Part shown: piece by piece, positions 9,001-15,000 of the stretch
Numbering within the stretch: position 1 is the first letter of the stretch
How the letters are laid out: each line of letters begins with the position of its first letter
Source of the DNA: a virus
Virus genome (UHGV): UHGV-1662509
Length of the DNA: 18,450 nucleotides
Strand: one strand, 5' to 3'
Program-made: the position numbers

Positions 9001-12000
9001 GCGGATCTGCATCAATTGACAAAAAGGTCTGCTGAAATTTCGGTGACTTCGCCAGCTCAGAATAATCCGCGTTAAGAACAGCATCTGCCGCTGCCATTGC
9101 ACTCCGCCCTTGCGCACTGACAGTGGAATGGGTGATCAGGCCTGCCTGGAAAAAATCCGGCATTTTTTTATCGACAGCTTCGGCTGCCAGTGCTGTGGCT
9201 CTTTCCGGCTGCATCCCTGCCGCGATGTATTTTTTCTCCAGCCCGGCGGTCAGCACTTTTCGCAGAGTGACATCACCCAGCTTTTTAGTCACACCGCCTG
9301 CAACCATATCCGGTACAAGCGCACCAATCAGGTTAACCCCTTTCGCTACCCAGACCGCTGAATCATCATATCCTTCAGTCATCGGTGTATTCAGCGCCCG
9401 CTGCGCCCCCGGCGACATCTTGCCAGTCAGCCATTCATCCGAGGCTTTAGCGCCGCCACTGACTGCCTTGCCTGTGACCTTCAGACCTTTACCGACAGTA
9501 TCAGTAACCGCATTTTTTCCATCAGGCAGAGTGTCGATGACCTCATCCGCCCCCTTGCTGCCACCGACAAAAATATCCTGAACAGTTGCGACTCCCGGCA
9601 GCCCCATACGGCTGAACTCATTTAAAATACGTGCCCCTGTTTTTACCGGGCTCTGAATCATCGCATCACCGAGTCCACGGGCCATTTCCCCTGTCCCCCG
9701 GACGGACTGGGCGACACCTTTCCCCATAGTTGGCAATACATCGCCCAAGCTGAACGACGTGCTGTTGTCCTTCCAGCGATTGGGATCGGAGAAAAACACA
9801 TCATAGCTGTCAGTCTCTCCCGGCTGCTGAATGTTCAGGCTGTTGCGGCTCTGGTTGCCAAATTGCGCTTCAGGGCGCTGTTCATCGGAATAAGCCATAC
9901 AGACTCCATAAAAAAACCCGGCACAATGACCGGGTATCAGGAAATAGTATTAACGGGAATGGTGAATTACTGCGCGTAATTCTGTTTCAGACCACGGATA
10001 AACTCAGATGCAGAGGCCGCGCTATCATCCCTGGCCTGTTCCCCCCTGGCCTTTTGAATACGGAGAAAATTCGCATACCCGTGTTCCAGCAATTTCTGAT
10101 TCTGAGGCTCCAGCATTTCTGGCTGACGGGAGGCCACTTCTCTGGCAAATGCCTGCTTATCCGGATCATCACCCGCCCAACTGGTAATCCCTTGTTGAAT
10201 TTTTTGCTGCTGAATTTGCTGCTGATACTGCGGCAGTCCCATCGAAGCATAATATTGCGTCACTGCTCCCTGCGCATCACCGCCGTCCTGTGCAACCTTT
10301 ATCGCTACCTGGCTGGCTCCTTTCTGAAGTTGATCCGCAGAAAGTCCCTGCTGCTTCGGCGTGAAATAGCCGAAATTTTTCGAAATTTCCGCGAATTTAC
10401 TGCGATCCCTGACAAGCTCAACAGCCTTATCAACAGGCACCGCCAGCACGGTTTGATCATCAGGATGTGCACTGCCGTATTCCGTAACGGGTTTATGTGC
10501 TGTAGAGCCATCACTGTATGTGAGATCAAGGCCGATAAGTATGTACCCTTCCTGCTGTGCCGGTACTATACTGCCAATCCTGGCTTCTTTTATCGTCTTT
10601 TTCCCGGTTGAATCGGGCATGCCAACACGCTGTTGCAGTTCCGGGCCAAACACCCCGGAAAGGACATCAAGATTCTCCGGCGTATTAAGTGAAGCGATAG
10701 CCCTGTCTGGCTTGTCATCAAAGATTTTTTGCAGGTTGTTCACGGCCTGACCCGCTTTCGCTACATAGCCATCATTCGCCATCAGCCTCAGCGGATTACC
10801 CTCTGACAACTGGCCGTAAAGACGCATTGCTGCATCCCGATCGCCAGCATCCACAGCCTTTCCAAGCGCCGCCATCACAGGCTGATCGCGCGCCAGCATA
10901 TCGTTATACTCAAGCCGTCGCTGGTTGTATTTCTGCATCCGGAGTCGCTGCTGCTCCATACCCAGCGACGCATTCCGGTAATTCTGGTTGGCGTTAAACT
11001 CCCTTTCCTGCAGTGCATAATTACGGTCGTCGACTTTGGCTCTGTAATCAAAGTTCCGCTGATCAACGTCTTTATTATGTTCAAACTGCGACTGTGCAAA
11101 TTCAAAATCGCGCTCGTTATTTTTCTGTTGTTGAGCAAGCTGTGCTTCTCGCAAACCAAGTTCCTTACGACGGGTCATTGCCTGGTCAACCGTGCTGAAT
11201 CCGGCAAGTAAACCCTGTGCAAATCCGCTCATTCACCACTCCTTAAAACAAAGAACCAGCAATACCACCTATGACAGCACCAATAGCCGCACCGGGGAGA
11301 CCACCAACAGCAGCGCCCATAGCTGCACCCGTACCAATTCCCGTGCCGATATTCTGTTTGTTCTGTGCTTTCTGTTGCGCCGCCATCATCTTGTTTGACG
11401 CCTCAATTTCTTCACGTCGTCTGTCTGCATCACTTATTCCCTGTAATGCCTCACGCCGCGACTGATTCGCAATATCCAGTAAACCGTATCCCATATTGCC
11501 CCCTTACGCTGACACCAGTTTTCCGCCAACACTCAGTTGTTGTCTTGCAGGTGCAGAAGCCCCCGTCAGTATGTTCATCTGGCGATCCTGCTCTGCTTCA
11601 CGGATACCATTTTTCGCGCCAGCAATTGCCAGAGCATTACGCAAACCCAGTGTGTTACTGTTGGGATTATCCGGGCGGCTTACCCCGTATCTCGCCATCT
11701 GGTTATCCTGCGCCATCTGCGCTGTACGGAGACTGGAAGTGGCAAGGCCGCCCACTCGGGCAAGCTGTGCATTCATCAGGCTGTTGTTCTCGCCAAGGTC
11801 AGCCAGCCTTGCCACGCGGGGCAAATATCTGGTTCGCCAGTCGTCGTATTGTTGGCGTGTCAGCGCTGCTGACGTCTGCCAGTCACCCTGTGGACGGGCA
11901 GCTCCGGTATAACCGTATCTCGCAAGTGTTTCGTATTTACCGTACTCCATAATCACAGTCTCCAGTTCTGAGCCTGATGCTGAATGGCATTAGCGCCGGT

Positions 12001-15000
12001 GCCAGGTGTTTTAGCACCGCCACTTCCTCCGCTACCGCCAGCCTTATACATCGCATATGCACCTACCGCACCCAAACCAGCGCCAACAAGAGAGGCTCGC
12101 CCCTGCTGTTTCGTAAACGCAGCCTGTGCGTCCGATTTAGCTTTTGCCAGACTGCTGTCTGCCAGCGAGTTAAAACTCTGTAACGCATCCGCCTTTTGAC
12201 CAGAACCGAGAGCAGCAACATCCTGTAGCCCGGCAACATACTTATCTGCCTGCGATACCTGCCCCCGTGTGGTTGTGTCAATCTGCCCGGTTACCTGATC
12301 ACTCTGGTTCGCATTCATTACCGCGTTAAAGCGACCACTGGACGGGTCAACACCGGACTGAGCAAGATTACCCGCCAGCTCCTTCCGTGCTTCGCCAAAC
12401 TGTTTCTGATACCCCAGATTTGTGGTGCCAGCAATATTGTCGTACTGCTGCTCACTGTTCAGGTCATCGACCTTTTCCATGAAGTTATCTTCAGCCGGGC
12501 GGAGGATTTTTTGATAATCCTGCCACCCTTTCCAGGCCACTTCTTCCTGTGCTATTTGCGCTGCTGTTGGTTTTACTTTGGTATCACCACCGCCTTTTTT
12601 TCCGCCCATTATGGCCCCCTGGATAACAAAAAACCCTGCCGGGGCAGGGTCAGAATGTGAATTGCAATTGGTTTACACACGATAATGAATACAGTGGCAG
12701 TCAGACCGCTATCCTGAACACCATGAAGCCATCCTCATCATCCGGCATTCGCTCAAAGCCCAGACGTTTTCCCAGCCGGATAAATCCCCGTCTTGCCGTA
12801 TGGAATTCAGCCCAGCGTCCGCCAGCCAGACGGGTTAATGTCTTCACCTCCGGCAGATAACGCTCAACGCTGTTACTCCCCGTACACACGCCCAGCAACA
12901 CCAGAACATAAGGGATACCGTCGTCACTGAGCACAGCACGCAGCACCAGAAAACCATCCGGTGCCTCAAAGCAAAACGCCTGCTTTTTAAGGCAGGCGTC
13001 TTTAACTTCATTCATAAATTCAGGGTTGCGGGAATTTCTCACAACACGCTGCATATACCGGAGAATTTTGTCGTCCATTCTCTCACCAGAAACGGGTGCC
13101 ATATCGGCTGAACCTCAGCAACCAGTTGACGGGGACTTTCGTCCCCGTCGCGGTTTTCCTACTGCTTACACTGTAAGAACGCCGCAAACTCCGCTCCCCA
13201 CAAATTCAGCCGGAACTCACACAACGAGCCGTGTAACATCCAGATGGTGAAGATTACCGTCATACAAATTGTGACGGTGATGAGCGATTTTTGCGACATA
13301 GCGCTTGCCTCCTGAGTGGAGAGGCGCTAACCTTCTACTTGCTTAAGGTATGATGGTTAGGGCCTCGGGTTAAACAAAATGTTTGACTCGGGGCCTTTCC
13401 ACATCAGGCCTTCAGGTTCACCTTCCAGCCATCAGCCGAAAGGCACCCGTGCATAATCTACGATTTTTGCCCTGCACGGGCAACAAAAAACCCGCCATCA
13501 CAGCGGGTTATGACATGTTGTCGGGTATTACTCAGAATTTCAGGCCAATGCCTGCAAATAAACCATCAGTTTTCCAGTCGCCAGAGCCTGAGCTTTCATA
13601 AGTGACGTCCATAGTAACACTTTCATTGAAGTTAAATTGCGCGCCGACAGACCATGCAATAGACGTTTTTTTGGTGCTGTTACTTTCAGAAAAACTACCT
13701 ACACCACCATTAAGATTGTCGTTAACTTTCAAATCATAAGTTACTTTTGCAACCGCAACACCTGCCATTGAATACACACTGAGGTATTCATTAAACCGCC
13801 ACGAAGGACCGGATAGTAGACTCCAGTAATTAGCCCTGATATCAGTTCTCGCTGAAGCTGCCGGTTTTTTTACCTCTCGTGATGGATCGGAAGGCTTAAC
13901 ATCAATGAATGCCTGTGCATTAGTCATGGATCGAGCCCATGCAAAAGAGGTTATAACACCGATCTCATCCGTAATCTCATAACGATACTTAATGTTCATT
14001 CCCAAGGGACTTTTCTCTTTACCATCATGGCCCCGGACAAACGCATCGTCATATTCTCCAGGTGAATTGAAATAGTTTTCATTCACAAAATTGTTAAAGG
14101 TATCAAGGTTATGAAGACTTAAATCCTTAACAAAATTATTCAGCCCGGATAACTGAAGGTGAGCGAATCCAAGGGATACGGTACTATCACCAGATGCAGC
14201 ATGTGCCTGTGCAGTTAATCCACCTAAGCCCAGAGTTGCGCACACAAGAAATTTTGTGATACTTTTCATTTTAAGAATCTTCCTATATTAAAAACATTGT
14301 TCTCTCTGTCCTTTCCACATTTTTGATTATTTACCATCCTGCCTGGAAATAAAAAATAAAAATTTTTCTTAAAATGATTGATAAATTTTATTGTGCTAAT
14401 CATACATTGAAGTATTAATAACAAGAACTTTGTCTACATAAGACTTTCGAATATCCCATGTTGCACCACCTGAATAATGCTCACAGGAATATATTTTATT
14501 TCCTGTAGCGCCAGTGGATGTGGTATAAATCGGTCGGTCATAAGGAGTTCTTTTCCAGTTATAATACCCGACCAGTGCAGGCATAATTGCGCATGGATAT
14601 CCAAGGTCCTTTTCAAATTTGATATCAACAGGTATTAACTTCGCGTCAAGCAGCATCATTTCGCCATGGTAAATCATCTCACCCAACGGATTATACATGG
14701 CGATACCATACTCAGAAGGTTGAGTAACCATATTCGCAAAAGCATAAACAGTCGTAACACCAGGATTCGTTCCCCTGACAATTTGATGAAGCCTTAAGGC
14801 ATGATATCCATCAATCTGTTCATGCGTGTACATGACATCGGCCTTCTTCTCTGTTCTGATAAAGAAAAAACAACTTTTTCCTGACGGAATTGACGTTTTA
14901 AAAAAAGCCTTCTCAGTCGCCGGAATAGTTCCCTTATTGATAAGACACTGAGGCGTAAACCCCGGGCTTATCCACAAGCTGCCATCTGGTTTCGTAATGC

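Follow-up and report, generated by a model that had tools for sequence, protein, structure and literature searches.

Probable read-through terminators abutting ribosome-binding sites in the distal late operon of a 933W-like prophage

On the minus strand of the virus genome UHGV-1662509, a stretch of 18,450 nucleotides (nt) hereafter called the window, hairpins with U-tracts run directly into the ribosome-binding sites (RBSs) of the genes behind them, which raises the question of how a gene is transcribed when a terminator stands immediately before its start codon. Three elements are concerned: T1 precedes a giant gene encoding 2783 amino acids (aa), T2 precedes a 218-aa structural gene, and T3 follows lom. 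An earlier note had described them and proposed that the genes behind T1 and T2 are reached by read-through of an antiterminated, Q-like late transcript. The present analysis arrives at a closely related answer, namely that T1, T2, and T3 are probably read-through terminators in the Q-dependent late operon of a 933W-like prophage, where they would confine stray transcription in the lysogen.

The window is the distal late (virion-gene) operon of a 933W-like (Sepvirinae) lambdoid prophage of the Shiga-toxin (Stx) type. Region 9000–13500 is 92–96% identical to nearly 200 Stx-converting and related short-tailed Sepvirinae phages, such as GER2, PhiR5_2, Lyz12581Vzw, Ss-VASD, and those of the 933W/Sp5 type. 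From 18211 down to 1547, the minus strand carries all substantial open reading frames (ORFs) in an unbroken same-strand array of virion genes. Along the transcript, they are the 541-aa gene, the tail-tip fiber gene (424 aa), the 93-aa and 208-aa genes, lom, and a hok/sok-type locus, followed by orf133, the 218-aa, 150-aa, 83-aa Gly-zipper, and 421-aa genes, and the gene of the 2783-aa protein (Table 1). With its LPD38, LPD5, LPD1, and MuF_C domains, the latter is recognizable as a polyvalent virion protein. Sakai phage Sp5 encodes homologs of the 421-aa protein (ORF79) and of the giant protein (ORF80/ECs1242), both of them essential and needed for tail formation (PMC5155283); thus, late expression of both is required.

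T1 starts 31 nt after the stop codon of the 421-aa gene (9967–9969) and reads ACCCGGU-cauugu-GCCGGGU, followed by U7 (T-run 9916–9910). T2 starts 50 nt after the orf133 stop (12701) and reads ACCCUGC-cccg-GCAGGGU (stem 12650–12633), followed by U6GUU to 12625, and the T3 stem, AACCCGC/GCGGGTT (13509–13489; 7–8 base pairs, bp), likewise leads into U6GUU. Each stem holds at least five G–C pairs, and the hairpin energies are −11.6, −13.1, and −12.2 kcal/mol for T1, T2, and T3, respectively. All three display the hallmarks of intrinsic terminators, i.e., a GC-rich stem and a 3′ U-run, co-oriented with the upstream gene and located past its stop codon, and they are the top three minus-strand terminator-like sites in a terminator scan of the window. 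The two canonical terminators placed by the earlier note against a Shine–Dalgarno (SD) sequence and ATG, and the third after lom, are therefore all present, with coordinates that agree within 1 nt.

A hairpin of the observed stability or better arose in 8, 10, and 9 of 2000 dinucleotide shuffles of the T1, T2, and T3 spacers, respectively (p ~0.004–0.005 each). The whole-spacer folds of T2 and T3 are not significant (z = −0.07 and −1.2), so only the local hairpins matter. A loose scan of the whole window found 21 terminator-like sites against 18.9 expected, i.e., no enrichment; since the three good spacer hairpins stand within an unenriched total, the signal lies in quality and placement, not in number. 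A stricter detector (stem of at least 5 bp with at least four G–C pairs, energy ≤ −7 kcal/mol, and at least five T within 8 nt past the stem) returned five matches on the minus strand of the window: T1, T2, T3, a site inside orf133 (12976–12999), and a weak site in a coding region (16495–16515). An Rfam search of the window at E ≤ 1 matched the sok-like region solely, placing T1 and T2 in no known RNA family.

Between U-tract and start codon, 11 nt remain behind T1 and 15 nt behind T2, where the 218-aa gene has its SD GGGGG at 12619–12615 and its ATG at 12609. No sigma-70-like promoter match is found in either gap. Such gaps leave no space for a promoter, so the giant and 218-aa genes must be reached by read-through, as the earlier note had argued. 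The GGAG-N6-ATG context of the giant gene recurs in relatives. Sequestration of this SD by a UUCC upstream of T1, seen in the minimum-energy fold, was considered and dropped since the pairing is not conserved (absent in locus L078).

The means of read-through is suggested by the phage group to which the window belongs. In Stx phages, Q lets RNA polymerase pass downstream terminators, according to a review (PMC8065619). The 933W record contains Q, pR′, qut, and three Rho-independent terminators just past pR′, with none annotated in the distal late region, and this, along with the affiliation to the 933W/Sp5 group, supports the antiterminated transcript proposed previously. In phage phi24B, reverse transcription quantitative PCR (RT-qPCR) found lom strongly on in lysogens and unchanged by induction, whereas the 8-kb ORF (CM7) was significantly up only on induction (PMC3342100). 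This surprised the authors, CM7 being located downstream of lom (PMC3342100), and it fits the claim of the earlier note that the giant gene is silent and lom active in the lysogen. Furthermore, reverse transcription PCR (RT-PCR) of the spacer just past T3 in phi24B yielded no product at time 0 and a clear one 80 min post-induction (PMC4426718). The distant relative phiARM81mr, an Aeromonas phage, is lambdoid (cI, cro, O, P, and NinB), and two tR′-like hairpin-plus-T elements abut its holin RBS, behind a zinc-finger protein in the position of Q.

In the proposed mechanism, ordinary RNA polymerase would stop at T1, T2, and T3. The 218–150–83–421-aa module and the giant gene would have no promoter of their own and would be transcribed only by Q-modified polymerase that starts at pR′ and crosses every terminator. 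In the prophage, the terminators would confine constitutive or stray transcription, that of lom and probably of the hok-like locus, such that the downstream structural genes remain silent. The terminators would adjoin the next RBS because intergenic space in this genome is minimal. Lambdoid late operons that depend on Q are normally built in this way, and the mechanism is textbook, with little that is new. Nevertheless, it would explain the phi24B puzzle of an 8-kb ORF that behaves as a late gene although it lies downstream of a constitutive lom, and it would place the distal structural genes, two essential tail genes among them, wholly under Q in Stx phages, a medically important group.

Two observations go beyond the earlier note: T1 and T2 follow ancestral structural genes, and the position of T1 is held across very distant relatives. 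The informative loci for T1 comprise approximately 70 IMG/VR loci in which the start of the giant gene is covered, five Aeromonas prophages, phiARM81mr, and Vibrio phage D80; their 421-aa homologs form 10 clusters at 70% aa identity and 8 at 50%. A terminator stands directly upstream of the giant gene in every one of them, in E. coli, Aeromonas, and Vibrio. At least six unrelated hairpin sequences fill this position, and the U-tract is kept in all six families. The distance from the stem end to the giant start codon is mostly 15–28 nt, reaching 44 nt in one group and 83 nt in D80. The phiARM81mr equivalent is AAAAGCCCCGAACGG-uucg-CCGCUCGGGGCUUUU CUUUUG, followed by GAGG and by ATG ~25 nt on, and that of D80 is AAGCCCGC-cuagu-GCGGGUUU UCUUUUG. 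In L111, L112, L114, L127, L135, L136, and L139, inserted ORFs of ~300 aa separate the 421-aa gene from the giant gene, and the hairpin stays beside the latter. A terminator was never found at the 218–150, 150–83, or 83–421 junctions of the relatives compared.

Among close relatives of the window, two T1 stem pairs are altered on both sides. Two families of T1-position hairpins are alignable (alignments A2 and A3), each with two doubly changed pairs, and pairing reaches 95% in register versus 24–59% when the arms are slid. A scan of genome contigs for further loci returned six only, mostly from Aeromonas, and added little diversity. The comparative novelty is a deep positional conservation of the giant-gene 5′ terminator combined with repeated replacement of its sequence, accompanied by the conserved hairpin inside orf133. 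As a simple and conserved marker, T1 can be used to locate where giant polyvalent-protein genes begin across this phage family. It is speculative and doubtful that T1 is an ancient gate dedicated to the giant gene, which, together with the hairpin inside orf133, would impose programmed partial termination even under antitermination, and thereby ration a gene of 8–11 kb or tie its transcription to a signal other than Q.

The giant-gene start in the 933W record (L133, record 49025) appears to be mis-annotated, as its ATG lies inside the T1 hairpin (ATGCCCGG...), where the window has ATA. Similarly, the giant gene p69 of phiARM81mr (L049) appears to start at 15801, where an open ORF is preceded by GAGG, instead of the annotated 17529, ~1.7 kb downstream. 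The giant-gene starts of both records can be corrected in this way. Additionally, giant genes of the Aeromonas type contain a conserved GC-rich hairpin of 11–12 bp, ACAGCCCCGGCC...GCCGGGGCUGC and then UGUUUCUG, ~2–3 kb into the coding sequence (L049 19023–19051; L125 8769, L127 8418, L130 7555, L137 7676, and L138 7055).

The history of T2 is shallower. Its stem is invariant in 46 close relatives, among which the loop (C/U), the U-tract length (6–7), the upstream spacer, and the SD (AGGGGG or GAGGAG) vary. The distant enterobacterial loci L090, L092, and L097/L099 keep T2, with a neighboring 421-aa protein of 31–41% identity. In L090/L092, a compensatory change from C–G to A–T is found (ACCCUGC/GCAGGGU versus AACCUGC/GCAGGUU); it was read by eye, since the MAFFT alignment A4 mis-registers the 3′ arm. 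The orf133–218–150–83–421–giant module is syntenic in phiARM81mr and D80 at protein identities of 21–51%. In both phages, T2 is absent and the orf133 homolog meets the SD of the 218-aa homolog without a spacer or hairpin, and T2 is therefore restricted to the enterobacterial branch. Three loci of that branch, L090, L092, and L099, carry T2 while lacking lom and hok upstream, so T2 is not tied to morons.

Other junctions of a terminator against an RBS recur across this phage group; in L090 (1381–1412) and L099 (1379–1408), a DUF4376 tail-fiber-like gene has a strong terminator (−22 kcal/mol) directly against its RBS. The GER2 record (L002) places a 12-bp ‘attR’ at 12624–12635, exactly where the U-tract and 3′ arm of T2 lie; the entry is probably an artifact of annotation, as T2 sits in the middle of a conserved operon, where an attachment site is implausible.

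Upstream of T2, the coding sequence of orf133 holds the hairpin ACGCCUGCC-uuaaaaa-GCAGGCGU, then UUUGCUUUG (12976–12999, minus strand), with a T-rich tail to ~12967. Its position is held in most lineages, with different inner stems (GCCUGCC/GGCAGGC, GCCAUCC/GGGUGGC, and GCCUGCC/GGCGGGC) and different encoded residues (DACLKKQAFCF versus DAIRNRVAFLF); the L102 group lacks it, and in Vibrio D80 it is weak. Three of its pairs link third-codon positions, and pairing is 97.5% in register versus 27–57% when slid, in a set that was pre-picked for at least 7 of 8 pairs and whose two-sided changes reflect essentially one clade split. The hairpin may be a translation-sensitive intragenic terminator.

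T3 has a different setting. It lies exactly at the edge of a low-GC island (13500–15300; GC 0.30–0.43 versus 0.50–0.57 on either side) that spans the lom, 208-aa, and 93-aa genes. In phiARM81mr, D80, and other distant loci, neither the lom block nor a hok-like locus stands between the tail fiber gene and orf133. A moron is an inserted unit with its own promoter and terminator (PMC3594210), and the lom block shows both the deviant composition and the absence from syntenic relatives that mark one, so T3 looks like a classical moron terminator. T1 and T2 differ in the second respect, as the genes upstream of them are present in relatives. Upstream of lom, a 52-aa ORF (14266–14424) lies in an extremely AT-rich stretch, and this stretch more probably serves as a promoter region than as a gene.

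Directly behind T3 follows the hok/sok-type locus. A Pfam HOK_GEF match of 33.2 bits exceeds the Pfam threshold, and an Rfam sok match has E = 1.4e-6 at a score under the gathering score. The promoter-like TTGCCC-17-TAGATT (13483–13455, minus strand) overlaps the T3 U-tract, and the 363-nt RNA from just past it folds its 5′ end onto its 3′ end (z = −8.4), the 3′ fold-back element overlapping the ATG of orf133 (13102). With this promoter-like site, the fold-back, and the Hok/Gef domain in its favor, the hok-like gene may plausibly be active in the lysogen, as the earlier note stated. A study of hokW–sokW in Sp5 (PMC8621323) concerns a separate locus, which the 933W record places at 58460–58734.

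A hairpin just past the hok-like stop, GACGGGGAC-gaaa-GUCCCCGUC (13127–13150; 9–10 bp; local z ~ −4 to −5.6), has no minus-strand U-tract and a weak one on the plus strand, and is probably the 3′ stem-loop of the hok-like mRNA. On the plus strand, the promoter-like TTGCCT-17-TAACCT (13305–13333) corresponds to the phi24B ‘p24B_1’ promoter, as judged by a primer sequence match. Since p24B_1 lies inside the hok/sok-type locus, the 20-nt ‘24B_1 microRNA-size RNA’ (PMC4426718) probably derives from a Sok-like antisense RNA; hok and sok are unmentioned in that paper.

Several points weigh against the reading of T1, T2, and T3 as terminators that confine lysogenic transcription and are passed under Q. 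T1 and T2 follow the 421-aa gene and orf133, respectively, ancestral structural genes that are present in distant relatives, and the T1 position is occupied also in Aeromonas and Vibrio lineages whose upstream genes include neither lom nor hok; moron insulation therefore cannot fully explain T1 and T2. The covariation within each hairpin family at the T1 position is modest, amounting to two doubly changed pairs each. Neither the Q gene nor pR′ is part of the window, and the phi24B RT-PCR of the spacer past T3 was performed on a small-RNA fraction and was probably not strand-specific. No Term-seq, S1, transcription start site, or RNA-seq maps were found in the literature on the distal late region of Sp5, 933W, and phi24B. 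The three elements would be genuine Rho-independent terminators, with a termination efficiency and an override by Q that are both predicted from sequence.

Other explanations were weighed as well. If the giant or 218-aa gene had its own promoter overlapping the terminator, read-through would be unneeded, and the 83-nt spacer past the terminator of Vibrio D80 indeed holds a promoter-like TTCACC-17-TATGAT. However, the two short gaps in the window contain no promoter-like match, a transcript begun upstream of the hairpin would itself meet the terminator, and the giant ORF is induction-dependent in phi24B, which leaves this explanation very improbable. It is also quite unlikely that all three elements are mere 3′ ends of acquired morons with no selected tie to the genes downstream. 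Synteny contradicts this for T1 and T2, given the ancestral genes before them; T2 occurs in L090, L092, and L099 without lom or hok, and T1 is universal in the family, whereas T3 fits, closing a low-GC lom block that is missing from the Aeromonas and Vibrio relatives.

A role in RNA stability or processing, in which the hairpins block 3′–5′ exonucleases or act as 5′ structures after cleavage and so give segment-specific half-lives without termination, is unlikely as well. The hairpins would form in any read-through RNA, their positions beside highly expressed genes of 933W and lambda are compatible with such a role, and a UUCG tetraloop caps the 14-bp stem of the Aeromonas type; however, the U-tract kept in six hairpin families would be needless for a stability element, and inserted genes separate the hairpin from the 3′ end of the 421-aa gene, leaving it next to the giant gene. 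Finally, the terminators may step down dosage, in line with the idea of the earlier note that leaky terminators set the stoichiometry; Q-modified polymerase would partly stop at each of them, and T1 would limit the costly giant protein relative to its partners. This is possible, though rather doubtful. Q-type antitermination is generally close to complete, Q-modified polymerase being largely terminator-resistant, which speaks against it, and Sampson, Hendrix, Huang, and Casjens reportedly attributed the ratios of lambda late proteins mainly to translation initiation in 1988. On the other hand, a terminator has remained in front of the giant gene while its sequence turned over completely, also in lineages without upstream morons and despite inserted ORFs, and the major capsid genes of 933W and lambda are also flanked by terminator-like hairpins. 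The P22 ant moron and tailspike provide a precedent (PMC2629481), and the behavior of T1 calls for more than moron insulation. Such a step-down is compatible with confinement and Q-dependent read-through, rather than exclusive of them.

Table 1. Features of the window and their coordinates.
Feature	Coordinates	Strand	Remarks
Giant gene	1547..9898	−	2783-aa polyvalent virion protein; homolog of Sp5 ORF80/ECs1242
Giant-gene SD and ATG	9896..9907	−	SD GGAG 9907–9904, ATG 9898–9896; 11 nt past T1 U-tract
T1 intrinsic terminator	9910..9935	−	421-aa gene/giant gene spacer; 7-bp GC-rich stem, 6-nt loop, U7
421-aa virion gene	9967..11232	−	phrog_601; homolog of essential Sp5 ORF79
83-aa gene	11243..11494	−	Gly-zipper membrane protein; labeled ‘bacteriocin’ in relatives
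150-aa gene	11504..11956	−	phrog_596; belongs to the syntenic module
218-aa gene	11953..12609	−	virion structural; phrog_611; 51% identity to phiARM81mr ‘virion structural protein’
T2 intrinsic terminator	12625..12650	−	orf133/218-aa spacer; 7-bp stem, CCCG loop, U6GUU
orf133	12701..13102	−	phrog_610; ancestral module gene; internal terminator-like hairpin
hok/sok-type toxin–antitoxin locus	13090..13452	−	Hok/Gef coding sequence 13159–13299; mRNA 5′–3′ fold-back
T3 intrinsic terminator	13482..13509	−	22–23 nt past lom stop (13532)
lom	13532..14269	−	Ail/Lom outer-membrane protein; upstream region 14270–14420 very AT-rich

At the far end of the array, the hairpin GCCCCGUACGGAAGUGCGGGGC (1515–1537) follows the giant-gene stop and has no U-tract; thus, no obvious intrinsic terminator closes the operon. 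The left neighbors of the giant gene are plus-strand genes (DUF551 protein, 234–1145), and Lyz12581Vzw has an integrase there. In phiARM81mr (L049), a ‘retron-type’ reverse transcriptase and a 23S-IVS-like protein (4864–6497, p58–p59) lie among the tail genes, just upstream of the tail-fiber genes. A reverse transcriptase placed by tail-fiber genes is typical of diversity-generating retroelements.

Application of the stricter detector to known late operons places T1 and T2 in context. In 933W, the 36.8 kb from pR′ to the end of the giant gene contain 16 sense matches, of which 14 are at ≤ −10 kcal/mol, versus 6 equally strong antisense matches, and several adjoin the following RBS. Intergenic matches follow stxB, the portal gene, and the major head gene (this last match abutting the next RBS), one precedes S, and others lie at 36273 and 40189; there are also matches equivalent to T3, the orf133 internal site, T2, and T1. 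With a 933W late operon so rich in strong sites, T1 and T2 become members of a set of about a dozen that any late transcript crosses. The lambda late operon (26.5 kb) has 6 sense matches at ≤ −10 kcal/mol; its hairpin-plus-T sites are found before and after E, before J, and before lom, and a strong site (19611–19634) stands directly past lom, 16 nt before the start of orf-401/stf. The earlier note had taken the terminator–RBS layout as a signature; it holds as a trait of a Q late operon, but it is not special to two genes, given the approximately 14 strong sites in 933W and the lom–terminator–stf order of lambda.

Lambda is therefore the closest parallel, with one long same-strand operon of lysis and virion genes, a constitutive pR′ with tR′, Q-modified polymerase passing terminators, and the arrangement of lom, terminator, and RBS of the next late gene already in place. 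The differences concern the virion type, the window being that of a short-tailed Sepvirinae phage, the downstream genes, and the number of strong internal terminators, which is lower in lambda than in the 933W type. Compared with morons such as HK97 gene 15 and lambda lom and bor, the low-GC lom block, together with T3, behaves alike, and the lom of phi24B is on in lysogens, whereas T1 and T2 of the window end ancestral structural genes, not inserted cargo.

In P22, the ant moron within the antiterminated late operon is thought to modulate the supply of polymerase from PLate to the distal tailspike gene (PMC2629481). The likeness lies in an element within an antiterminated late operon, upstream of a distal virion gene; however, P22 employs the repressors Mnt and Arc and an antisense promoter, while the window shows simple terminators only. 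T-phi of phage T7, located after the major capsid gene, is a partly leaky internal terminator of measured efficiency with essential genes close behind. It resembles the elements of the window as an internal terminator inside a virion gene cluster with further essential genes close by, and differs in that T7 uses its own polymerase and no antitermination factor, whereas the sites of the window are known from sequence.

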